DNA of 64,000 nucleotides from a virus (Duplodnaviria; Caudoviricetes). The DNA is taken from IMG/VR virus record IMGVR_UViG_2724679359_000002, positions 1 through 64,000 of that record. One strand, 5' to 3'. Under the pieces are notes generated by a model that searched no databases, was not told where the DNA came from, and was given only the letters and a program-made list of their open reading frames with translations. Each line of letters begins with the position of its first letter. Within the stretch, counting starts at the first letter, position 1. The position numbers and the translations under genes were made by a program. Positions 1,870 to 64,000 of this stretch are shown piece by piece.

Positions 1870-4797
1870 TTAGTCGTCATGGTCTTGATAACTGCGGTTT
1901 GATTTACTTTGTGTCTGGCGCTGATAGGCCGCTAACTGGCGGGCTACCTCGCGCGCGATATCTTGCGCGTCATGTTGTGGTAGCGGGTAAATATTGATAA
2001 TGGGCGCACCAGTGCTGACTTGGTTTTGCTGTTGGTTGCCGGATTGGCCGTTATTGTGATTGCGGTACTGTGTCGCCGGTAAACTGTACGGATGAAGCGG
2101 GGCGGCGGCAGCTTGATAGCCACTGAATAACATGGACGCGGCAACCGCCATGGCGGCAGTATTGCGGCGGCCAGTGATGTGTGCCGGGCCGTTAATAATC
2201 TCCGGCCCATGCTCACCGACTACGCCAAATTTACCCAGCGGGATAGTGCCGCCGTTATCATATTCACCGGTATATTTCGCGGCGATATCAGCGGCACTGT
2301 TACCCTTTGGCGCGGGCTTCCATGTAATGCCGTAATTACCTGCGGCGGCAGCTACCGCCGGATTGCTCTGTGCCAGTTCGCGGGTTTTCTCGGAGCGCTG
2401 TTTCACCTCATCCAGTTTTTCCAGCACCCATTTAATAGATGAAATCAGTGCGTTAAGGGGGGTCATGGCAAAGCTGATACCATCGGCCAGAAATTTACCG
2501 AAAGATTTACCGGCATCGGCAGCGCTGTTTAAATCGGCGGTGGTGGATTGCACCGGCTCCAGTAATTTTTTAAACCAGTTCCACACGCTTTTAACTGCAT
2601 CGCCGATCCAGTCAAACACCGGCCCCAGCGGTTTCAATGCCTCTTTAATTGGGGCGGCGGCTTGCATAAAGCCATCCACTACACCGCCTAAAAACGCCTT
2701 AATCGGATTCCAATACTTGTAAATCAGCAAGCCCGCACCGGCGATGGCCGCACCAATCAGGCCGATAGGGCTGATTAAGATCCCGAACATGCCCCCTAAG
2801 CCGCCAAGAGCAAAGCGCAGGAATTTAAGCGGAGATTTAGCCAGCCAGCTAACGGCATTGCCCAACATTTTAAAACCGCTGATAGCGGATTTAACCGGAG
2901 AACGCACCACATTAACCAGACCATTACCCAGCCCTTTAAGGGTGGCAATCGCCGACTGACCGCCATTTTTAGACAGGGTAAGCAGTGAGCGGCTAAAGTT
3001 GCCGATCTGCTGGGCGGTTATCGGAGTAGTGCTCGCCAGTCTGGAGATACCAAACGACAGCTGCGGCAACAATCGGATGCCTAATACTGAGGTAGTAAAA
3101 CGCAGTAGGGCGAATGGCCCCAAAATACCGACAACGGCGATAGCCAATGCACCGAATGCGGCGGTCGCAATAGCGACAGCAGTACCCACCTGCACAATGC
3201 CAAGGCTGATTTTTGGATGGGCTTTGAGGAATTCGGCCACACCATGCATAAACTCGGTAATGCTTTTGGCTGTTGACCTAAGCCATGCGTCATTTTTCTC
3301 AAACAGTTCAACGCTGACGTTTTCCAAGGCGGCATGAATAATGGTCATATCGCCTTTCAGGTTGTCCAGCTTAGTCGCCGCTACGCGAGCCGCTTCGCCA
3401 TCATACTCACCGGGCTGACCACGCATCTTATCTAACGAGCCATTACCGGCGGCGTGCATTAACACACCAAAACCGGTGACAGCATATTGCCCGGCAATGT
3501 TTTTAAAGATAGCGCCGCGTTCAACGTTACCCATTTTGGCGGTTTTATCACTGATATCTTTGAGGATATCCACCAAATTGCGCATATTGCCGTTCTTATC
3601 GGCGGTCTTAACCCCTAAATCGCTGACCGCTTTAGAGTTACCAATGCGACTTAAAATACTGCGCATGGTGGTACCGGCCTGACTGCCCTGAATACCGGCG
3701 CTACCTAGCATGGCGGTAGACGCTGCGACTGTCTCCAAACTCTGCCCGTACTCCCGGCCAACGCCGCCGGAATACTTCATAGACTCGCCCAGCATCGGGA
3801 TATCCACGTTATTACGGGTGAATAACGCGGTGAGCACATCAGCCACCCGATCCATTTTCTCTGCCGGAATCCCCATCGCGGTTTGAATATTGGAAGCAAT
3901 ATCGGCGGTAGTACCGAGATCAATATCACCGGCTGCTGCCAAATTCAGCATACCCGGCATCGCGTCTAATACCTGTTTCGGGCTATAACCAGTACGACCA
4001 AGGAAATATTGCCCTTGTGCCACTTCCAGATCGGTAAATTTAGAAGAGAGCGGCAAGGTGCGGGCCTGATGGCGCATCGCCTGCATATCTGCTGAATTTT
4101 TATCAGGAATGCGGGTAACGGCCTGAGTTTTACTCATCATACCGTCAAATTCATAGCCAACATGCAGCGCTCCGGCTATCCCACGCCCCATGGCGCGGCC
4201 AGTTGAGAGCGAGGTGTAGCCCAATCCAGCGGCAATGGCTTTGCGCTGATTACTGCTATCGAAGCGGTTACGGGCAGCACTAAGGCGCTGTTGTTGCTGC
4301 GCTTGCTGATCTAACCGGCGCTGCTGTGCGGTCAGCGCGGCAGTGGTATTAGTAATATTGGCTTTAAGGGATCGCTGAGCCTGAGCTAATCGATTGGTGG
4401 CAATGCCGCTGCTTTGTAATGCGGTGCGCTGGGTATGTAGCGCGGTGCGTAAGTCATGGTATTTTTGTTTTAGTTTCGCAGCCTCTTCACTGGCGCGTTT
4501 AAACTCTCTGGCCTGTTTAGCGGTGGGGGCGGCACTGTTTTTTAATTCGGTGGCAAGCTGACGCGCTTTATCACGGGCAGCGGTCAGCGCCTGAGCGGCA
4601 CCATTAACCGCCGCTTTATTCTTGCGAAAGCCCTCAATATTAGCCGCCTGGCTATTGAGTTGCTTAAGCTCTTGTTTGGAATTTTTAATAGATTCGGCCA
4701 GCATCTTATTGCTGGCCAACATAGATTTAAATGGCTTGGTAACTTTATCAATGGCACTTAAAGAAACCTGCAAACGGAGGTTCTTGTCACTCATCAC
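1870..4797 (-). CDS. T: Tail tape measure protein (975 aa)
   Basis: Ala/Gly-rich helical protein with TP901-type core (GIQGSQAGTTMR, DNLKGD); synteny. Confidence 0.92.
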   Translation of the reverse strand: MMSDKNLRLQVSLSAIDKVTKPFKSMLASNKMLAESIKNSKQELKQLNSQAANIEGFRKNKAAVNGAAQALTAARDKARQLATELKNSAAPTAKQAREFKRASEEAAKLKQKYHDLRTALHTQRTALQSSGIATNRLAQAQRSLKANITNTTAALTAQQRRLDQQAQQQQRLSAARNRFDSSNQRKAIAAGLGYTSLSTGRAMGRGIAGALHVGYEFDGMMSKTQAVTRIPDKNSADMQAMRHQARTLPLSSKFTDLEVAQGQYFLGRTGYSPKQVLDAMPGMLNLAAAGDIDLGTTADIASNIQTAMGIPAEKMDRVADVLTALFTRNNVDIPMLGESMKYSGGVGREYGQSLETVAASTAMLGSAGIQGSQAGTTMRSILSRIGNSKAVSDLGVKTADKNGNMRNLVDILKDISDKTAKMGNVERGAIFKNIAGQYAVTGFGVLMHAAGNGSLDKMRGQPGEYDGEAARVAATKLDNLKGDMTIIHAALENVSVELFEKNDAWLRSTAKSITEFMHGVAEFLKAHPKISLGIVQVGTAVAIATAAFGALAIAVVGILGPFALLRFTTSVLGIRLLPQLSFGISRLASTTPITAQQIGNFSRSLLTLSKNGGQSAIATLKGLGNGLVNVVRSPVKSAISGFKMLGNAVSWLAKSPLKFLRFALGGLGGMFGILISPIGLIGAAIAGAGLLIYKYWNPIKAFLGGVVDGFMQAAAPIKEALKPLGPVFDWIGDAVKSVWNWFKKLLEPVQSTTADLNSAADAGKSFGKFLADGISFAMTPLNALISSIKWVLEKLDEVKQRSEKTRELAQSNPAVAAAAGNYGITWKPAPKGNSAADIAAKYTGEYDNGGTIPLGKFGVVGEHGPEIINGPAHITGRRNTAAMAVAASMLFSGYQAAAAPLHPYSLPATQYRNHNNGQSGNQQQNQVSTGAPIINIYPLPQHDAQDIAREVARQLAAYQRQTQSKSNRSYQDHDD

Positions 4798-22428: not shown

Positions 22429-24192
22429 ATGGAAAGCGTTGCTATCAATGCCGATTTAGACCCCCGCCGTCAAGCCATGTATCTGTATTGGCAAGGGCTG
22501 CGTATCGCCCGAATTGCGGAAATGATCGGTGAGAAAGCCGTCACGGTACACAGTTGGAAGCGCCGCGACAAGTGGGACGCGTACGGGCCATTGGATCAGA
22601 TGCAGCTGACCACGGCAGCGGAATATTGCCGCCTGATAATGAAGCCTGTCAAGGAGCCGAAAGACTACAAAGAGATTGATTTGCTGGGCCGACAAGCCGA
22701 GCGTCACGCTCGCATTGGTAAATACAATGATGGCGGCAACGAGGCCGATCTCAACCCCAATATTGAGAAGCGCAACAGCGGAACACGCAAGGCACCGCAG
22801 AAAAATATATTCAGTGAGGCGCAAGTTGCCAGGCTGAAAGATATTTTCAATGAATCCATGTTCGACTATCAGCGCAACTGGTATGAGGCTGGTTTATCGC
22901 CTGATTTCCGCATTCGTAACTTTTTAAAATCGCGCCAAGTCGGTGCAACCTACTTTTTCTCATGGGAAGCGCTGCTCGATGCGCTCGACACTGGCCGCAA
23001 CCAAATGTTTGTTTCGGCCTCAAAAGCGCAGGCGCACCAGTTTAAAAATTATATTGTGGCGGCGGCGCGTCAAGTGGATGTTGATTTGCGCGGTGAGGTA
23101 ATTATTTTGCCCAATGGCGCTGAAATGCACTTTCTCGGCACTAACGCCAGCACCGCACAGGGCCGCCCCGGCAATCTCTATCTGGATGAGTATTTTTGGA
23201 TACCCGGCTTTCAGAAGTTACGTCGTGCCGCATCGGGTATGGCCTCGCAGAAAAAGTATCGCGCTACCTATTTTTCCACCCCGTCCAGCACCTCACATGA
23301 GGCTTACCCGTTCTGGGCTGGCACCCTATTTAACAAAGGTAAAGCAAAAGATAAACGCATTGAAATTGATGTCAGCTACCCCCGATTGGCGGCTGGCCGG
23401 TTGTGTGAGGATAAGCAGTACCGGCAGATTGTCACTATTGAGGACGCACTGAAAGGCGGCTGCGACCTGTTTGATATTGATGAATTACGCAATGAAAACA
23501 GTGATGAAGATTTTGAAAACCTGTTTATGTGCGGCTTTATTGATGATAACGCCTCCACGTTCAAACTGGCCGAAATGCAGCGTTGCATGGTGGATAGCTG
23601 GGAAAAATGGACAGACGTCAAACTGCTGGCGCTACGCCCGTTTGGTGATAGGCCGGTGTGGATTGGCTACGACCCGGCCAGCACCGGTGATAGTGCCGGT
23701 TGTGCGGTGATTGCGCCGCCAGTGGTGGCGGGCGGTAAATTCAGGGTATTGGAGCGCCATCAGTGGAAAGGGATGGATTTTGCTGACCAGGCCAGCAATA
23801 TCAAAAAAATCACCGAGCGCTATAACGTCACTTACATCGGTATTGATGATACCGGGCTGGGCCGCTCCGTGACGCAATTAGTACGGCAATTCTTCCCGGC
23901 GGTTAACGCCATTCACTACAGCTTAGAAATGAAAGCTGACCTGATTTATAAGGCCAAAAATATTATTCATGGCGGCCGTCTGGAGTTTGACGCGGGCTGC
24001 ATTGATATTGCCACCGCGTTTATGTCTATCCGCAAAACCATGACCGCCACCGGCCGCAACGCCACTTTTGTCACTGACCGCTCAAAAGACGTCAGCCACG
24101 GTGATGTGGCCTGGGCCATTATGCACGCCTTATTCCATGAGCCTCTTGAGGGCATTAACAGCAATAACACCAGTGTGATGGAGATATATTAA
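22429..24192 (+). CDS. P: Terminase large (ATPase/nuclease) subunit
   Basis: KSRQVGAT Walker A, YLDE Walker B, FSTP, IGYDP nuclease motif. Confidence 0.95.
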   Translation: MESVAINADLDPRRQAMYLYWQGLRIARIAEMIGEKAVTVHSWKRRDKWDAYGPLDQMQLTTAAEYCRLIMKPVKEPKDYKEIDLLGRQAERHARIGKYNDGGNEADLNPNIEKRNSGTRKAPQKNIFSEAQVARLKDIFNESMFDYQRNWYEAGLSPDFRIRNFLKSRQVGATYFFSWEALLDALDTGRNQMFVSASKAQAHQFKNYIVAAARQVDVDLRGEVIILPNGAEMHFLGTNASTAQGRPGNLYLDEYFWIPGFQKLRRAASGMASQKKYRATYFSTPSSTSHEAYPFWAGTLFNKGKAKDKRIEIDVSYPRLAAGRLCEDKQYRQIVTIEDALKGGCDLFDIDELRNENSDEDFENLFMCGFIDDNASTFKLAEMQRCMVDSWEKWTDVKLLALRPFGDRPVWIGYDPASTGDSAGCAVIAPPVVAGGKFRVLERHQWKGMDFADQASNIKKITERYNVTYIGIDDTGLGRSVTQLVRQFFPAVNAIHYSLEMKADLIYKAKNIIHGGRLEFDAGCIDIATAFMSIRKTMTATGRNATFVTDRSKDVSHGDVAWAIMHALFHEPLEGINSNNTSVMEIY

Positions 24193-25232
24193 TGAGTAAA
24201 CGCAACAGGAAAAGCCGCCCGATCAAAGTAACAGCGGCCATAGCGGGCAATAGCACACCACAAGCCGAGACGTTTACGTTTGACGACCCGATCCCGATGA
24301 TGGATCAGCGCGATATTCTGGATTATCTGGAATGTGCAGTAATGGATCGCTGGTATGAGCCGCCGGTATCATTCAACGGTCTGGCTAAATCATTCCGCGC
24401 GGCGGTGCATCATAGCTCGCCTATCTATATGAAACGTAATGTACTGGTTAGCCTGTTTGAGCCGCACCGGCTGCTATCAAAGCAGGATTTTAGCCGCTAT
24501 GCGCTGGATTTTTTGGTGTTCGCCAACTCATTTTTAGAGGTCCGCTATAACCGGCTGGGTGGTATTATGAAACTGGTTCCCAGCCCGGCAAAATATACCC
24601 GCCGAGGCGTGGAGACTGACACCTATTGGTATGTCTCATCCTATGCCAACCCACACCCTTTTGAAGCAAACAGCGTTTTTCACCTGCTAGACCCGGATAT
24701 TAACCAAGAGATCTACGGCGTTCCTGAATATCTCGCCTCGCTAAATTCGACCTGGCTTAATGAAGCCGCAACGCTATTTCGCCGTAAATATTATCTGAAT
24801 GGTAGTCATGCCGGATTTATCCTGTATATGAACGACGCCGCCCACAAACAGGAGGATATCGACGCCTTACGCAAGGCGCTGAAAGAATCCAAAGGGCCGG
24901 GCAATTTCCGCAATCTGTTTATGTACGCCCCAGCCGGTAAAAAAGACGGGATACAGGTGATCCCATTAGCAGAAGTGGCGGCGAAAGATGAATTCGCCAG
25001 TATTAAGAATGTCACCCGCGACGACCAGCTCGCTATGCAGCGAGTACCACCGCAATTGATGGGTATTTTACCCAACAACACCGGCGGATTTGGTGATGTG
25101 GAAAAGGCCGCGCGAGTATTCGCCATTAACGAACTGGCCCCCTTGCAGGAGCGGCTGATGGAAATTAATGACTGGGTAGGGGAGGAGGTGGTGAGGTTCC
25201 GCCCCTATGATTTATTGGTTTCTGCGGGCTAA
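24192..25232 (+). CDS. Q: Portal protein
   Basis: WYEPP, QEIYGVPEY, FRRKYY.NG, RVPPQLMG. Confidence 0.95.
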   Translation: MSKRNRKSRPIKVTAAIAGNSTPQAETFTFDDPIPMMDQRDILDYLECAVMDRWYEPPVSFNGLAKSFRAAVHHSSPIYMKRNVLVSLFEPHRLLSKQDFSRYALDFLVFANSFLEVRYNRLGGIMKLVPSPAKYTRRGVETDTYWYVSSYANPHPFEANSVFHLLDPDINQEIYGVPEYLASLNSTWLNEAATLFRRKYYLNGSHAGFILYMNDAAHKQEDIDALRKALKESKGPGNFRNLFMYAPAGKKDGIQVIPLAEVAAKDEFASIKNVTRDDQLAMQRVPPQLMGILPNNTGGFGDVEKAARVFAINELAPLQERLMEINDWVGEEVVRFRPYDLLVSAG

Positions 25233-57610: not shown

Positions 57611-58465
57611 TTAGCAGTCGGTCAATACATCGTTCTGGTTGTTGCCGCCGGTGGATTCCGGGCGTTTGGTCTGGCTAAAGTTTTCAGTGATAGAAAGTTT
57701 GGTTTCTAGCGACGTAACCCCTTGTTTTCCCTTTTCAATGCTCTGTTTCAGCTCCACCACTTGGTCTGCAAATTGCTTCTCAATGGTCGTAAAGCGGGCT
57801 TCAATGGTTTCTTCCTGCTCCTGCACATGCACTGCCACGGCATTCACCGCCTCATGCACATCATTAAAACGGGCGTCGTCGGTTGCTTGCTTGCGGCTGA
57901 ATACTGACTTCACCATGTTGAGTAAGGTGACACCCGGCTCGGCCACGTCTTCAAATTCCAGTTGCACTTCAACTGCCGCCGAGAAAAAGTTATCCGGGTT
58001 GGATTTACGCGAGGCCAGTGGGTTGTGTTTGGCTTTGACGCTGAACTCTAAAATTTCCGTGCCAAGACTATTAGGGTCATCGGTCACCGCCAGACCGACC
58101 AGATAGGCTTTACCGCTGTTGGCAAAGTTCGGACTAATCTCCATCGAGGTGTAAACTTTTTGGCGGCTTTTATTCAGTAGTACCAGTTCGTCTGTTGGGT
58201 TGATTTGGGCAAAAAGTGCGCGCTTACCCTTCAGTGCTGAATCATCTTCAATAGTTTCAGCTTTCAGACCAACGACATCGCCATAACGGCGGAATGAGCT
58301 GTCAGGTGACACACTTCTTATGTGTTCCAGATTGATGCGGCAACCGTAGACGCGCGGGTCAAAGGTTTCGGCCATTTGGTTGATATCGTTAACGTCAATC
58401 ACTCGCCCGTCGCAGGTATCACCCTCAACGCCGATACGAAAATACTTAGAAACTTTCTTAGCCAT
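57611..58465 (-). CDS. O: Capsid scaffold O
   Basis: FRIGVEGDTCDGR, QKVYTSME, LTDC. Confidence 0.93.
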   Translation of the reverse strand: MAKKVSKYFRIGVEGDTCDGRVIDVNDINQMAETFDPRVYGCRINLEHIRSVSPDSSFRRYGDVVGLKAETIEDDSALKGKRALFAQINPTDELVLLNKSRQKVYTSMEISPNFANSGKAYLVGLAVTDDPNSLGTEILEFSVKAKHNPLASRKSNPDNFFSAAVEVQLEFEDVAEPGVTLLNMVKSVFSRKQATDDARFNDVHEAVNAVAVHVQEQEETIEARFTTIEKQFADQVVELKQSIEKGKQGVTSLETKLSITENFSQTKRPESTGGNNQNDVLTDC

Positions 58466-58550
58466 GAGCGGCTCCATTCAGTGTGATTATGGTTATTCGG
58501 TTCGGGGCTTAGTTTCCTGATGTAAGGCGGCAGCAACAACGAAAGCCAGT

Positions 58551-58568
58551 TGTGACGGGGCTGGCACA
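58551..58568. promoter_or_regulatory. Ogr site of pO/pP
   Basis: TGT-N12-ACA. Confidence 0.8.
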
Positions 58569-58615
58569 ACAGCGAGGACGCGCAGAGGGTCGGGCTGGTC
58601 GCGTAGCCTAATGGC

Positions 58616-60388
58616 ATGAATACGACACCGAGCACCATCATCAGCGACCCACGGCGACAGGCGGCCTTGCTTTACTGGCAGGGCTTCTCTGTGCGCCAAA
58701 TCGCAGACCAGCTAGCCCTTAAATCGCCGACTGTGCAGAGCTGGAAGAAGCGCGACGGGTGGGATGCGATTGCGCCCATTTCCCGCGTGGAAACCAGCAT
58801 GGAAGCGCGGTTGATTCAACTCATCATGAAAGACGCCAAAGAGGGGCGGGACTTTAAAGAGATTGACCTGTTAGGCCGTCAGATTGAACGGCTGGCGCGG
58901 GTGAACCGCTACAGCCAGACCGGCAGCGAAGCTGATTTAAATCCGAACGTAGCGAACCGCAACAAAGGGGAGCGCAAGCCCCCGGATAAAAACCTGTTCA
59001 GTGAATCCGCGATTGAAAAACTGGAATCTATTTTTCACGAAAATATCTTTGATTATCAGCGCAACTGGTTTGATGCCGGGCTACAACACCGTATCCGCAA
59101 TATCCTGAAATCGCGCCAGATTGGCGCAACGTTCTTCTTTGCCCGCGAAGCGCTATTGGATGCCATCACCACCGGGCGTAATCAGATTTTCTTATCTGCC
59201 AGTAAAGCACAGGCGCATGTGTTCAAAAGCTACATTATCGACTTTGCCCGCATGGTTGACGTTGACCTGAAAGGTGACCCGATGGTGCTACCCAACGGGG
59301 CGCGCCTGTTCTTTCTCGGCACGAACGTGCGCACCGCGCAGAGCTACACCGGCAATCTCTATCTTGACGAGTATTTCTGGATACCCAAGTTTCAGGAACT
59401 ACGCAAAGTCGCCAGCGGCATGTCATTACACAAAAAATGGCGTACCACCTATTTCTCCACGCCGTCGAGTCTGGCGCACAGCGCCTATCCGTTCTGGTCT
59501 GGTGAGTTGTTCAATAAAGGCCGCCGCAATAAATCCGACCATATTCAACTGGATTTAAGCCACAGCCATTTAGCCCGTGGTGCGCTGTGTGCTGATGGTC
59601 AGTGGCGGCAGATTGTCACGGTTGAAGATGCACTGGCGGGCGGCTGTAACCTGTTTGACCTCAACCAGCTCTCACTGGAATACGGCCCGTCAGAATATCA
59701 AAACCTGTTGATGTGCGAGTTTGTCGATGACCAGGCGTCAGTGTTCCCGTTCGCCGAGTTGCAGGCTTGCATGGTCGACAGTTTGGAAGAGTGGGAAGAC
59801 TACAACCCGTATTCGTTGCGGCCGTTTGGGCATCGCCCGGTGTGGATTGGTTACGACCCGTCCGAGGCCAACGGCGGCGACAGTGCCGGGTGTGCGGTGA
59901 TCGCGCCGCCAATGGTGCCGGGCGGCAAGTTCCGCGTATTGGAGCGCCACCAGTGGAAAGGGATGGATTTTGAAGCGCAGGCCAAACATATCGAAGAGCT
60001 GACGCAGAAGTATTGTGTGGAATATATCGGTATCGATGCGACTACCGTCGGCCAAGGCGTTTTCCAGTTGGTGCGCCAGTTCTTCCCGGCAGCAAGGGAA
60101 ATCAAATACACCCCTGAAATCAAAACCGCCATGGTGCTGAAAGCCAAGCACACCATTAATAACGGCCGTCTGGAATATGACACTGGCCACACCGATATCA
60201 CCCAGTCATTTATGGCCATTCGCAAGACTATGACCGCCAGCGGCAAGAGTTCGACTTATGTTGCCAGCCGCAGTGAAGAAGCCAGCCACGCCGATGTGGC
60301 GTGGGCGATTATGCACGCCCTGTTAAATGAACCCCTTACCGCGACATATGGCGGTCACAGCCCTAACTTCTTGGAGTTTTACGGATGA
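58616..60388 (+). CDS. P: Terminase large subunit
   Basis: KSRQIGAT, YLDEY, FSTPSS, IGYDP. Confidence 0.95.
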   Translation: MNTTPSTIISDPRRQAALLYWQGFSVRQIADQLALKSPTVQSWKKRDGWDAIAPISRVETSMEARLIQLIMKDAKEGRDFKEIDLLGRQIERLARVNRYSQTGSEADLNPNVANRNKGERKPPDKNLFSESAIEKLESIFHENIFDYQRNWFDAGLQHRIRNILKSRQIGATFFFAREALLDAITTGRNQIFLSASKAQAHVFKSYIIDFARMVDVDLKGDPMVLPNGARLFFLGTNVRTAQSYTGNLYLDEYFWIPKFQELRKVASGMSLHKKWRTTYFSTPSSLAHSAYPFWSGELFNKGRRNKSDHIQLDLSHSHLARGALCADGQWRQIVTVEDALAGGCNLFDLNQLSLEYGPSEYQNLLMCEFVDDQASVFPFAELQACMVDSLEEWEDYNPYSLRPFGHRPVWIGYDPSEANGGDSAGCAVIAPPMVPGGKFRVLERHQWKGMDFEAQAKHIEELTQKYCVEYIGIDATTVGQGVFQLVRQFFPAAREIKYTPEIKTAMVLKAKHTINNGRLEYDTGHTDITQSFMAIRKTMTASGKSSTYVASRSEEASHADVAWAIMHALLNEPLTATYGGHSPNFLEFYG

Positions 60389-61149
60389 AATCAATGACTT
60401 TTACTGCTGGTCAAGTTGACGGCCTGCGCGAACATTTCGAAAACGCGGCCTTTGACTATCAAAAGACGTGGTATCGGGTGGGGCAGACCGGCGTAGCCCG
60501 AAATATCACCAAGTCGCGCCAGATTGGGGTCGACTGGCTTTTTGCTTTTGAAGCGTTACTGGATTCCCTCACCACCGGGCGCAATCAGCATTTTTTAACC
60601 TGCACCAGACCAAGCGCCTTGAATACCCGCGCTTATATTGCCGAGTTCTGTCGGGTCGTTGGGGTAAACGTGAACCCATGTTCGCTGAATAATATTCTGT
60701 TAGGTAATGGCGCACTTATCGCCTTTCACGGTGAAAACAGTCACGCCGCTGCTCATGCCGGGAATGTGTACCTGGGTGAATATGCATGGGCTAAAAACCC
60801 ACGTTCAATACTGCTCATGGCTAAGGGGATGGCAATGCACAAAAATCATCGTTTAACACTCTATACCACGCCCTCCCGCTCACATACCGCGTTCAAGATT
60901 TGGAACGGCTCACTGGGCCATCCACGAAAAGTCGCACCGGTGATACACACCGATAACGGCGTTTTTTGTGCTGATGGCGTATTCCGTCAATCGGTTACGG
61001 CTGATGATGCTACTCAGCAAGGCGGCATGTTATGGGGAAAAAATTGGGATAAAGATTGGCTGAAAAAACACATGACGGCGGATGATTTCAAGCTCTTATA
61101 TTTGTGCGACTGGTCACAAGCGGCAAACAATGCAGAGGAAGTAAAATGA
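60385..61149 (+). CDS. Terminase ATPase-domain paralog with degenerate Walker motifs
   Basis: FDYQ..W, KSRQIGVD, GNVYLGEY, YTTPS, LCDW align to the gpP ATPase domain; ATGA overlap with P, stop overlaps the Q start. Confidence 0.85.
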   Translation: MKSMTFTAGQVDGLREHFENAAFDYQKTWYRVGQTGVARNITKSRQIGVDWLFAFEALLDSLTTGRNQHFLTCTRPSALNTRAYIAEFCRVVGVNVNPCSLNNILLGNGALIAFHGENSHAAAHAGNVYLGEYAWAKNPRSILLMAKGMAMHKNHRLTLYTTPSRSHTAFKIWNGSLGHPRKVAPVIHTDNGVFCADGVFRQSVTADDATQQGGMLWGKNWDKDWLKKHMTADDFKLLYLCDWSQAANNAEEVK

Positions 61150-62183
61150 GTAAGCGCAAAGGCCGCAAGGCATTAAGTCGCCCGGCAACTAATCACACCG
61201 CCAGCCAACAGCAGCCGGTGGAGGCTTTCACCTTTGGCGAACCCTCCGCCGTTCTCGACAAGCGGGAAATACTGGATTACATCGAATGCACCGGCAACGG
61301 TAAATGGTATGACCCGCCGATTAGCTTTGACGGGCTGGCGCGCAGTTTCCGGGCGGCGGTGCATCACAGCTCACCGCTGTATGTGAAACGCAACATACTG
61401 GCAAGCACATTTATCCCGCATGCAATGCTCAGTCAGCAAGCCTTTAGCCGCTATGCGCTGGATTATCTGGTGTTCGGCAATGCGTTTTTAGAGGTGCGCC
61501 GTAACCAACTGGGCGCACCACTGCGCCTCGACCCCAGCCCGGCCAAGTACACCCGCCGGGGACTTGAAAAAGATTGCTATTGGTTTGTCCAGAACTGGAA
61601 AGATGAACACCTGTTCGAAGCCGGGAGCGTTTTTCACCTGATAGAACCGGATATCAATCAGGAGCTTTACGGCCTGCCGGAATATCTCAGCGGCTTAAAT
61701 TCGGCTTGGCTCAATGAAGCGGCCACGCTGTTCCGTCGCAAGTATTACCAGAATGGCGCTCACGCGGGATACATCCTGTATATGACTGACGCCGCGCAAA
61801 GTAGCAGCGATATTGAGGCAATGCGTAAAGCGATGCGCGACACCAAAGGGTTAGGCAATTTTCGCAACCTGTTTATGTACGCGCCCAACGGTAAAAAAGA
61901 CGGCATCCAGATTTTACCGTTGAGCGAAGTCGCCACCAAAGATGACTTTTTTAATATCAAGAACGCCACCCGCGACGACCTGCTTAGTGTTCACCGGGTG
62001 CCGCCGCAGATGATGGGGATTATTCCCAACAATACCGGCGGATTCGGTGACGTGGCGAAAGCCTCACAAGTGTTTGTCCGTAACGAGTTAACGCCGTTGC
62101 AAGAACGATTGAAAGAGGTGAATGACTGGATAGGGCAAGAGGTGATCCGGTTCAAGCCTTATGAACTGATAAGTGAGGAATAA
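61146..62183 (+). CDS. Q: Portal protein
   Basis: WYDPP, QELYGLPEY, HRVPPQMMG. Confidence 0.95.
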   Translation: MSKRKGRKALSRPATNHTASQQQPVEAFTFGEPSAVLDKREILDYIECTGNGKWYDPPISFDGLARSFRAAVHHSSPLYVKRNILASTFIPHAMLSQQAFSRYALDYLVFGNAFLEVRRNQLGAPLRLDPSPAKYTRRGLEKDCYWFVQNWKDEHLFEAGSVFHLIEPDINQELYGLPEYLSGLNSAWLNEAATLFRRKYYQNGAHAGYILYMTDAAQSSSDIEAMRKAMRDTKGLGNFRNLFMYAPNGKKDGIQILPLSEVATKDDFFNIKNATRDDLLSVHRVPPQMMGIIPNNTGGFGDVAKASQVFVRNELTPLQERLKEVNDWIGQEVIRFKPYELISEE

Positions 62184-62184
62184 A

Positions 62185-62364
62185 ATGGGACGTAAAGCGC
62201 CAACACCACCGCCATATAAACCCGGCGACACAGTGAAGAGGCCCGCGCCACCGCCGCAGCCGCCCAAAAAATGCGAGTGTACAGGCTGCTATCGTCGGCG
62301 AATGGGATTAGGCGGATATCAGCCGCATAGCTGCGGTGTGAGTATTGCGGTTTCAAATAGTTAA
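62185..62364 (+). CDS. Small Pro-rich, Cys-containing protein
   Basis: GAGGA SD; PTPPP, PAPPPQPP, CECTGC; lies before the operon terminator. Confidence 0.5.
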   Translation: MGRKAPTPPPYKPGDTVKRPAPPPQPPKKCECTGCYRRRMGLGGYQPHSCGVSIAVSNS

Positions 62365-62384
62365 TTGATATTTTTGAACATCAT

Positions 62385-62409
62385 AGCCGCCGAACCGGGC
62401 GGCTTTTTC
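62385..62409 (+). terminator. Terminator of the P-Q operon
   Basis: AGCCGCC-GAACCG-GGCGGCT followed by TTTT. Confidence 0.8.
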
Positions 62410-62571
62410 ATGCCTGAAAAGTAGCGATTCCAACCCCACGTGCCATACGCCACCAGACGCCCATCACGCCCTCACACCCCATGAACACGCATTGACTCCC
62501 GACTCAACCGAACGCAGCACCACGGCCCGCTCAAGATCGATAAATAAGGGTATCAAAACCCTTTGCGCGCA

Positions 62572-62590
62572 ATGCTATCCCCGCCACGCC
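62572..62590. other. cos site (19-nt cohesive end)
   Basis: Reverse complement GGCGTGGCGGGGATAGCAT closely matches the P2/186 cos. Confidence 0.85.
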
Positions 62591-62724
62591 TGCGCGCTTT
62601 GCAGGTCGCTTTTCATGCACTTGCATGATCCATTGAGATCCGCGCCGGAACTGGGGCTAGCTGGGATTTTCTGGCTCAGGTTCATCATGCAAAATCATGC
62701 ACTATATGCATGCAGTGCTAAAAA

Positions 62725-62910
62725 TCAGCGCAAAGAATGTAAACAGGACTCCCCTGCCCCGTCTAAATAGATATTTTTTGCTTCTACAACTAATTCAGAT
62801 ATCCACACCAGTGCCACTTCCCGGTCTCTATTTTTCATCTCATCACCGGCTGACATTCTAGCTATGAGGTCTATACGTTCAAGCAAAACTAGCCCATCTA
62901 AATCCATCAC
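62725..62910 (-). CDS. Tum(A)-like antirepressor
   Basis: LLERIDLIARM...DREVALVWISEL resembles the phage 186 Tum N-terminus; SOS box upstream. Confidence 0.72.
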   Translation of the reverse strand: MMDLDGLVLLERIDLIARMSAGDEMKNRDREVALVWISELVVEAKNIYLDGAGESCLHSLR

Positions 62911-62935
62911 TTAATAATCTCCCAGCACTTATGCA

Positions 62936-62955
62936 TACTGTGTTTATATACAGTA
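62936..62955. promoter_or_regulatory. LexA (SOS) box
   Basis: TACTGTGTTTATATACAGTA = CTG-N10-CAG consensus. Confidence 0.9.
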
Positions 62956-63105
62956 TACTATGCACTTTTTAAGAAAACTTCTATATAAATATATGGTTTT
63001 ACTTAAGTAAAAAATCTTAGATTAAAAAGCATCCTGTTGAACAACAAACCTTTTATGCATAAAAGCAGTGAACACAGTGCGTCACACTACATATTTAATT
63101 TTCAG

Positions 63106-63119
63106 TGTGACGCGTCACA
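63106..63119. promoter_or_regulatory. Perfect palindrome TGTGACGCGTCACA
   Basis: Overlaps the stop of the RHH/Cys gene; extra half-site near 63080; counterpart at 26009. Confidence 0.55.
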
Positions 63120-63474
63120 ACGGTTTAATTTCGCTAATCAATAGACTGTTGATACCTTTGGTCTGCCAGCAAGCCGCCTCACCCCGCAAACAACATCCAT
63201 TTGGATCGCCCGGCAAGGTATCGCCACATTTTCCGCAACGTTGTTTACCCAGTTCGGCCAGTTGCTCTTTTAGTCGCTGGTTATCTTGCCGAATAAGTAG
63301 CGCGATATATTCTGGTAAATCATAGGCAGGCCGGAACAGACGCCGGGCGGCCATACCCTCGGTCAGCATGGCGTGTTCTTCTGGCTCAAGCCGGGCGCGA
63401 ATTTCATTGATACCGGCGGATTTATCACGCTGGCGCTGTGCCTGTTTGCGGGTAGTGGCGTCGGTTTTAGTCAT
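63115..63474 (-). CDS. RHH-like/Cys-rich phage protein
   Basis: Homolog of 28713-29057 (RKQAQRQRDK...CGKCGDTLPG...CC...CWQT). Confidence 0.8.
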   Translation of the reverse strand: MTKTDATTRKQAQRQRDKSAGINEIRARLEPEEHAMLTEGMAARRLFRPAYDLPEYIALLIRQDNQRLKEQLAELGKQRCGKCGDTLPGDPNGCCLRGEAACWQTKGINSLLISEIKPL

Positions 63475-63493
63475 GGTTTCTCTCTCAGGTAGA

Positions 63494-64000
63494 TTAATCA
63501 TCGAATTCCGGCCAGTCGGACAAGGCCGGATATTGAATAACAGTGTCATCGAACGTCATTGAAGCCCCACGGGCTAACGATTCCAGCTCCCAGCGCTGGA
63601 CGCTGATATCTTTCAGCAGTAAATCATTGCGAATTTGGGAGATGCGCTGGCGTTCTTCGCGGGTTAAGCGGGCAGATGGCGCAATAATTCGGCCCTTGGT
63701 GGGGTCATAACTGCGTTGTATCTTGCTTATCGTTGGCTGTTTCTCTTTAACGCGGGCCACAATCGCCCTCACGGCGGCAGTGTCCGACCAGTCAATAACG
63801 GCGTCCGGTGGGTATTCCATCGCCACCACAGGCGTTTCAGCCTGCCCGCTGGGGTCATTTGGCGCTTGGGTGTTTTCACCTAACCCACAGTTATTGACAG
63901 GACTCCGAGGCGCGCCAGAGGCGCTTTTCAAAGTCAAAAGCTCAACGTCAACGGCACCAGCAACGATGCGCCATTGGGTTGTGCGGGTTTCATGAATATG
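63494..64000 (-). CDS. A: C-terminal part of replication protein gpA (truncated by the window edge)
   Basis: Open to the window edge; APRSPVNNC segment and WELESLARGA tail typical of P2 A. Confidence 0.88.
   Translation of the reverse strand, partial: HIHETRTTQWRIVAGAVDVELLTLKSASGAPRSPVNNCGLGENTQAPNDPSGQAETPVVAMEYPPDAVIDWSDTAAVRAIVARVKEKQPTISKIQRSYDPTKGRIIAPSARLTREERQRISQIRNDLLLKDISVQRWELESLARGASMTFDDTVIQYPALSDWPEFDD
63890..63914 (-). other. P2-type replication origin
   Basis: GCGCCTCGGAGTCCTGTCAATAAC. Confidence 0.85.

Follow-up and report, generated by a model that had tools for sequence, protein, structure and literature searches.

We find that an open reading frame (ORF) lying between the large terminase and portal genes of a P2-like prophage belongs to the Yersinia-phage branch of an already annotated family, gene W of phage 186. 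The ORF is located at 60385-61149, on the plus strand, of a 64,000-nucleotide (nt) stretch of viral DNA (Duplodnaviria; Caudoviricetes; positions 1 to 64,000 of IMG/VR record IMGVR_UViG_2724679359_000002), which as a whole we call the window. It starts with an ATG and encodes a protein of 254 amino acids (aa) that the ORF list, Pfam and fold identify as a W-type terminase paralog containing the ATPase domain only. A first-pass annotation had described this gene as an apparently inactive terminase ATPase paralog inserted between genes P and Q, a possible decoy. The W gene is ordinary for its phage group, where it has been annotated since the 186 genome, and checking its identity keeps W from being read as a new decoy. 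W is neither a recent insertion nor a decaying duplicate, and nothing marks it as a defence or counter-defence gene.

Kinship and distribution of gene W

In the phage 186 genome (GenBank U32222), a 248-aa protein annotated as 'W protein; similar to Orf12' is encoded between Orf12, the homolog of P2 P, and Orf2, the homolog of P2 Q; the gene is preceded by the B-activated late promoter p12 and followed by the terminator tW. The window protein aligns with 186 W at 44.3% identity over residues 1-244 of its 254 (tblastn, E 6e-53) and matches phrog_3746 (E 1.3e-112), and the annotation of PSP3 orf2 likewise reads 'similar to 186 W'. When we searched 50,697 phage records with the window W using tblastn, 488 had matches, most of them P2-like gpP genes at less than 60% identity. 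Phages 186, Midge, EtG, PSP3, SI22, SW9 and BIS20 carry W at 42-47% identity, each with a second match that corresponds to gpP, the large terminase.

Two Yersinia enterocolitica phages, vB_YenM_56.17 and vB_YenM_201.16, encode W proteins that are 88.6% and 85.8% identical to that of the window, again between P and Q; vB_YenM_56.17 has it as gp20, with the label 'terminase large subunit', flanked by gp21 (P) and gp19 (Q). According to their published description, both were isolated as inducible, plaque-forming temperate phages (PMC9224151), and so the Yersinia version of W, with GAD in Walker A and YLGE in Walker B, works in viable phages. The 186 protein resembles the window W in having the ATPase domain only (248 vs 254 aa), in its position between P and Q, in the overlaps of its start and stop codons with its neighbors, and in falling on the same side of a tree of W and P. 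It differs in that it keeps KSRQIGAT and VYLDE where the window W has KSRQIGVD and VYLGE.

The reading frame is intact and overlaps both neighboring genes, as the first-pass annotation had stated. The W start and the gpP stop share the ATGA at 60385-60388, and the W stop and the start of gpQ, the portal protein, share the ATGA at 61146-61149. Shine-Dalgarno sequences precede both starts: GGAG lies 9-12 nt 5' of the W start and GAGGA 7-11 nt 5' of the Q start. Given that ATGA overlaps with Shine-Dalgarno sequences fit ordinary coupling, we rejected the idea of a P-W fusion made by frameshifting. On the opposite strand within 60385-61149 there is no ORF of 50 aa or more.

W corresponds to the ATPase domain of the window's gpP (58616-60388, plus strand), a 590-aa large terminase for which the ORF list and Pfam give a helix-turn-helix (HTH), an ATPase and an RNaseH-like nuclease domain, with canonical KSRQIGAT and LYLDE motifs. 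The two proteins align at 36% identity over 249 columns (W 6-243, P 128-369; BLASTP, E 1e-45). Pfam detects only Terminase_6N on W (E 3.6e-17), whereas gpP matches Terminase_5/HTH, Terminase_6N and Terminase_6C (E 1.2e-43 for Terminase_6C). These results agree with the earlier description of a match to the ATPase domain of gpP alone, with no HTH or nuclease domain.

An AlphaFold2 model of W built on 32 family members has a mean predicted local distance difference test score (pLDDT) of 86 and a predicted template modelling score (pTM) of 0.85. Its best Foldseek matches are to the ATPase domain of T4 gp17 (2o0h, E 1.4e-6, TMq 0.67; 3cpe, TMq 0.69); the large terminases of D6E and P74-26 and the terminase chain of PhiV-1 in its complex with Avs3 (8dgc_E, E 1.3e-4) are matched as well. 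In contrast to this fold search, a W profile search against PDB sequences returned no match, and NCBIfam has no model for W. Like the ATPase domain of gpP, to which it is 36-39% identical, W has the same fold and the same order of Q motif, P-loop, Walker B strand and coupling motif. Unlike gpP, it has no N-terminal HTH or nuclease domain, other residues stand in place of the Walker A Thr and Walker B Asp, and its ratio of nonsynonymous to synonymous substitutions is eight to ten times higher. By these marks W is not a functional large terminase (TerL): it gives no Terminase_6C match, and Asp50 and Gly131 stand in place of the canonical Thr and Asp.

Among sequenced P2-like phages, only a minority have W. 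When 186 W was used as the query, 13 of the 489 matching phage records were at least 90% identical to it; together with four Yersinia records, about 17 phage records carry W, GenBank/RefSeq duplicates included. P is followed directly by Q, with no W, in P2, KL3, RSY1, LPM4 and a Klebsiella phage. A search of 5.8 billion proteins returned 34 W clusters of 139-445 aa, with identities to the window W of 85-92% in Yersinia, 41-47% in Hafnia, Enterobacter, Pectobacterium and Edwardsiella, and 35-36% in two clusters.

To look at gene order we used 165 analysable loci (given L numbers below) from two scans of IMG/VR and one of reference genomes; at least 18 contigs among them were fetched twice, and the W-like ORFs amount to 125 distinct DNA sequences. 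Of the 165 loci, 145 read P-W-Q and 3 read P-Q-W; most of the others are truncated at contig ends or come from P2-like contigs lacking W. Seven loci read W-Q, six of which are cut at a contig end, the seventh (L077) having 4 kb upstream and no gpP. The rest consist of P alone at a contig end (2/165), P-Q (4/165, including L015 with a frameshifted W), P-W-Q with a broken Q (2/165, one contig fetched twice) and a broken or cut gpP scoring as extra 'W' pieces (2/165). Of the 145 P-W-Q loci, 70 have a 4-nt overlap between the W start and the gpP stop, and 68 have an overlap of 1 nt. The three P-Q-W loci (L045, L047 and L048; e.g., L048:1164-4738) form a sub-clade in which a 245-aa W with GAT and YLDE begins 40 nt past the portal gene. 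At L077:1-4000, no gpP match is found in the 4 kb 5' of an intact 186-type W and Q.

The W lineage is old and separate from gpP. We built a tree from the ATPase domains of 16 gpP proteins, including those of Burkholderia, Ralstonia and Aeromonas phages, and from 23 W proteins; all of the W proteins lie on one side of a branch with a Shimodaira-Hasegawa-like approximate likelihood ratio test (SH-aLRT) support of 99. W is no nearer to its own gpP than to distant ones (36-40% identity throughout) and so did not arise recently by copying of the adjoining gene; we rejected a recent tandem duplication of the neighboring gpP on this ground. The word 'inserted' in the first-pass annotation therefore does not hold for an old lineage with a fixed position between P and Q in many P2-like phages and an annotated member in 186. 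On the tree, gpP proteins from phages with and without W are interleaved, with 186 next to P2 and L089 next to a Klebsiella phage, which implies repeated loss or transfer of W.

More distant relatives were found with a profile search of 1.84 billion representatives, which gave 555 at E <=1e-3. Among the best 150 of these, 62 are no longer than 300 aa, although some of these short representatives may be gene fragments. The ESM Atlas contains many clusters of 235-263-aa 'terminase family' proteins with Terminase_6N only. By these searches, stand-alone terminase-ATPase proteins form a large class.

The altered nucleotide site

In P-loop NTPases, the Ser or Thr of Walker A binds Mg2+ directly and the Asp of Walker B binds it through water. 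Both positions are changed in the window W. FDYQ at residues 23-26 (60451-60462, plus strand) is the adenine-binding Q motif, so named in work on T4 gp17, and its Gln26 is invariant in the W family. The Walker A-like KSRQIGVD at residues 43-50 (60511-60534, plus strand) retains the conserved Lys43, Arg45 and Gly48 but has Asp at position 50, which is Thr in gpP. The Walker B-like VYLGE at residues 128-132 (60766-60780, plus strand) has Gly131 in place of the Walker B Asp but retains the catalytic Glu132. YTTPS at residues 160-164 (60862-60876, plus strand) is the counterpart of the terminase coupling (C) motif. The motifs reported earlier, namely FDYQ and KSRQIG kept, GAT changed to GVD and YLDE to YLGE, are all present.

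The state of the two Walker motifs varies by type. Both the 186-type and the Pectobacterium-type W keep K[SA]RQIGAT and Y[LVI]DE, and the Yersinia type has GAD with YLGE. Within the Yersinia type, Val occupies position 49 in the window, L007 and L016, and at position 50 L024 has Asn while L039 and L040 have Lys. Other types located between P and Q have GAD with Y[VL]PE (L089, L090) or with YFAE (L091). The search pattern of one locus scan was directed at the GAD class, which biases the class frequencies among the loci; the IMG/VR loci targeted in this way most often encode a 241-aa protein with GAD and YVSE, in every case located between P and Q.

The same pairing is seen in the best 150 of the 555 relatives. 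The 88 long proteins have Thr or Ser, Asp and Glu at the Walker A, Walker B and catalytic Glu sites in 82 cases. Of the 62 short proteins, 18 have Asp in Walker A, and none of these 18 has the Walker B Asp; this position is Ser in 13, Pro in 3, Ala in 1 and Gly in 1. Of the short proteins whose Walker A residue is Thr or Ser, 30 carry Asp in Walker B and 7 do not. A further tree holds 122 representatives; 29 of the original 151 rows were left out, having fewer than 180 filled columns. The 16 Asp-class rows that remained, together with the 186/Pectobacterium-type representative, form a clade of 17 with a support of 98 that includes the window W. The Asp class may therefore reflect one old remodelling that has been kept, rather than repeated convergence.

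Across 15 representatives of the Asp class (25-44% identity to the first), Asp50, Gln26, Arg45 and Gly48 are invariant, and conservation of Lys43 and of the catalytic Glu is 90% or higher. This pattern indicates that the Walker changes are a conserved, paired alternative state and not decay. An Asp in Walker A together with a small residue in Walker B is chemically coherent as a relocated ligand, and W has possibly retained nucleotide binding. Of the earlier label 'inactive', the altered Walker motifs stand; the inactivity does not follow, given that the paired state is conserved at 25-44% identity and that the other residues of the nucleotide site are kept. A paired, conserved change of the Mg2+ site in a large branch turns the label of pseudo-enzyme into a simple biochemical question.

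Selection on W and its role in packaging

The first-pass annotation had described the gene as strongly diverged yet maintained, and had proposed the ratio of nonsynonymous (dN) to synonymous (dS) substitutions across homologs as the check. Maintenance is borne out: in the Yersinia clade, an intact 254-aa W is present in 27 of 28 loci as well as in the window. In the 186-type/Pectobacterium-type group (40-50% identity), W is intact in 57 of 58 loci, the 58th being cut by the contig end. In the 28th Yersinia-clade locus (L039:4001-5128), W is 375 aa long owing to an in-frame repeat of residues ~61-183, seen in tblastn as the pieces 1-183 and 61-254. At this locus, P and Q are 99% identical to the window's, and the duplication is either real or an assembly artefact. 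At L015:4107-4754, in Candidatus Symbiopectobacterium, W is split into pieces of 99 and 107 aa, the portal gene and gpP are truncated, and the whole prophage is decaying.

For the Yersinia clade, we computed dN/dS by the Nei-Gojobori method over 253 pairs of 23 sequences; 5 of 28 sequences were dropped with P or Q incomplete or of odd length, and L039 had been left out beforehand owing to its duplication. W has a ratio of 0.244 (dN 0.061, dS 0.249), P of 0.032 (dN 0.009, dS 0.270) and Q of 0.024 (dN 0.008, dS 0.336). The 186-type and Pectobacterium-type sequences together gave 0.149 for W, 0.042 for P and 0.040 for Q, based on the 693 of 1326 pairs with dS of 0.05-0.8 in all three genes. These ratios clearly point to purifying selection on W. 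With reading frames intact and dN/dS at 0.24, well below 1, the homologs do not show the picture of neutral decay or frameshifts that the first-pass annotation had named as refuting its reading.

Constraint is uneven along the protein. Residues 106-165, covering the Walker B strand, the following helix and YTTPS, are the most constrained (nonsynonymous to synonymous differences per site, pN/pS, 0.07-0.14), while the N-terminal third and residues 196-240 reach 0.26-0.38. The highest pN/pS of any 30-codon window of W is 0.38 and none exceeds 1, although pairwise counts and sliding windows are blind to single positively selected sites and ignore recombination.

We also considered that W might be a functionless remnant of a tandem duplication of gpP, caught before its decay. 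Such a remnant would fit the relaxed constraint on W relative to P and Q, the single copies that lack the catalytic Glu (L016) or carry an internal duplication (L039), and the absence of W from most P2-like phages. It does not fit dN/dS values of 0.15-0.24, nor the intact W genes in 57 of 58 loci of the 40-50% identity group and in 27 of 28 Yersinia-clade loci plus the window. The family is, moreover, old and diverse, its motifs are conserved at 25-44% identity, and the sole frameshifted copy that we saw (L015) sits in a prophage with a broken portal gene. We give a remnant almost no credence.

Instead, W is probably an accessory subunit or assembly factor of DNA packaging, encoded in the late P-Q operon and coupled to its neighbors. 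Homology, fold, the fixed position, the age of the lineage, purifying selection and the conserved remodelled site are what we observed, and from these we infer the role in packaging. W would be made together with the terminase and the portal from the late operon, translationally coupled to both. It would then contact gpP, the portal or both through surfaces of its ATPase domain, for which residues 106-165 are the candidate, and it would bind nucleotide as a switch rather than as a motor. Gene W of 186 is said to be essential, its conditional-lethal mutants reportedly making no heads, which would fit such a role. In the open-access full-text literature, we found no paper on the function of 186 W or on a second, ATPase-only terminase in P2-like phages, and our literature searches yielded no molecular function for the 186 W family, although this phage group is among the best studied.

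RNA libraries contain related prophages, with contigs 90-95% alike spanning P-W-Q, but contigs cannot show transcription and DNA carry-over is possible. One RNA run searched at the level of raw reads gave 0 reads on W, in a run that probably does not contain this prophage.

Several observations weigh against a packaging role. P2, the first prophage of the window and most P2-like phages package DNA without W, which means that W is not generally needed by the packaging machinery. The interleaving of gpP proteins from phages with and without W means, in addition, that W compensates for no visible defect of gpP. The W protein evolves 4-10 times faster than P and Q, the gap being wider in the clade whose Walker motifs are altered. 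In L016, a W that is 99% identical to the window's (4001-4765) reads NVYLGAYA, with the catalytic Glu132 changed to Ala. Between the window and L016, dS is 0.006 for W, 0.17 for P and 0.33 for Q; W being near-identical where P and Q differ, W alleles move by recombination and are exchangeable as a cassette. Recombination breakpoints flank W in L016. Given that P2 and many of its relatives do without W, its role in packaging may be conditional.

Immune sensors, rival phages and the surrounding prophages

The first-pass annotation had suggested a decoy against terminase-sensing immunity. As a decoy or anti-defence protein, W would mimic the terminase ATPase fold and soak up or block the sensing of the real terminase by Avs1-3 or Upx. 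W does have this fold, with the Avs3-bound terminase chain 8dgc_E among its matches (E 1.3e-4), it is made at the same time as gpP from the same operon, and it evolves faster than its neighbors. The authors of a recent preprint suggest that non-terminase activators of Avs2 might be anti-defence proteins (bioRxiv 10.64898/2026.04.30.721860).

The same preprint describes how the sensor responds. The isolated ATPase domains of five terminases activate EcAvs2, which contacts the terminase-bound ATP at its gamma-phosphate and the hydration shell of the Mg2+; once a terminase ATPase domain has bound to Avs2, oligomerisation and toxicity follow (bioRxiv 10.64898/2026.04.30.721860). A binder would therefore be a liability unless it blocks assembly. 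T4 vs.8, a stand-alone protein with both Walker motifs that is homologous to the ATPase domain of T4 terminase, also activates EcAvs2 and is toxic together with it (bioRxiv 10.64898/2026.04.30.721860). Going by this description, vs.8 resembles W in being a phage-encoded, stand-alone homolog of the phage's own terminase ATPase domain; it differs from the window W in that it keeps both Walker motifs, comes from T4-like phages and is toxic with EcAvs2. By analogy with the ATPase domains and vs.8 as described there, a W that bound the sensor would be expected to trigger it rather than to blind it. Nor does any window of W have a pN/pS above 1. The gene holds a fixed place in a structural operon rather than in a cargo hotspot, it lacks its own promoter, and we found no paper on terminase decoys in the open-access full-text literature. 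In a search of W against the PADLOC defence models, 0 families matched at E <=0.1. Nothing in the sequence favors a decoy, and we regard one as very improbable.

In a variant of this idea, which we consider unlikely, the Asp class of W would not be dead at all: the metal-binding carboxylate would have been relocated from Walker B to the Thr position of Walker A. Since the terminase-bound ATP and its Mg2+ shell are what Avs2 and Avs3 sense, such a redesign could be functional yet invisible to terminase sensors, or could act as a competitor that does not activate them. Because stand-alone terminase-like ATPases can trigger Avs2, as the preprint reports, paralogs such as W may be liabilities, escapes or inhibitors in terminase-sensing immunity.

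W might alternatively be a dominant-negative weapon that enters the terminase rings of rival P2-like phages or P4-like satellites and poisons the motor. The window contains two tandem P2-like prophages with W in only one of them, and an ATPase-only subunit without the usual Mg-binding residues is a classic design for a poison. Yet W is expressed only with its own late genes, so that its own gpP would be poisoned first. The ATPase domains of the two gpP proteins in the window are about equally far from W, at 39% identity each, and nothing in the W sequence points to selectivity. The 186-type W, finally, keeps canonical Walker motifs, and the poison design is therefore no trait of the family. 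We judge this role to be very improbable, and we prefer to view W as an accessory of packaging.

The P2-like head modules of the window's two prophages share one orientation and are separated by ~36 kb (gpP at 22429 in the first, at 58616 in the second), and W occurs in the second only. In prophage 1, P (22429-24192) is directly followed by Q (24192-25232) with no W in between, in agreement with the first-pass annotation; this Q is 65% identical to that of prophage 2. The whole 72,397-base record contains three W matches in all, namely W itself and the two gpP genes. In the second prophage, M, N and O are on the minus strand and P, W and Q on the plus strand, and gpQ (61146-62183, plus strand; ORF list and Pfam) is a 345-aa portal protein counted from the ATG at 61146.

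We found no sigma-70-like promoter in 58300-62700, which leaves W without a promoter of its own. The GC content is 0.49-0.51 in W and 0.52-0.58 in P and Q. A horizontally acquired moron was considered and rejected, given the lack of a promoter, a GC content near that of the neighbors and the fixed position in the operon.

A terminator-like hairpin with a T run lies 3' of Q (62385-62404, plus strand), in the position of tW in phage 186. The region beyond Q often carries cargo genes in P2-like phages. In the Klebsiella phage ST15-OXA48phi14.1 (L100:4955-5723), the gene adjoining that of the portal carries the annotation TIR domain-containing protein and is likely defence cargo at the hotspot beside Q. 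In the window, the stretch just past the terminator (62700-63300) is AT-rich, with a GC content of 0.36-0.39 compared to ~0.53 in the head genes, and two minus-strand ORFs lie near it at 63115-63549 and 63494-63937.

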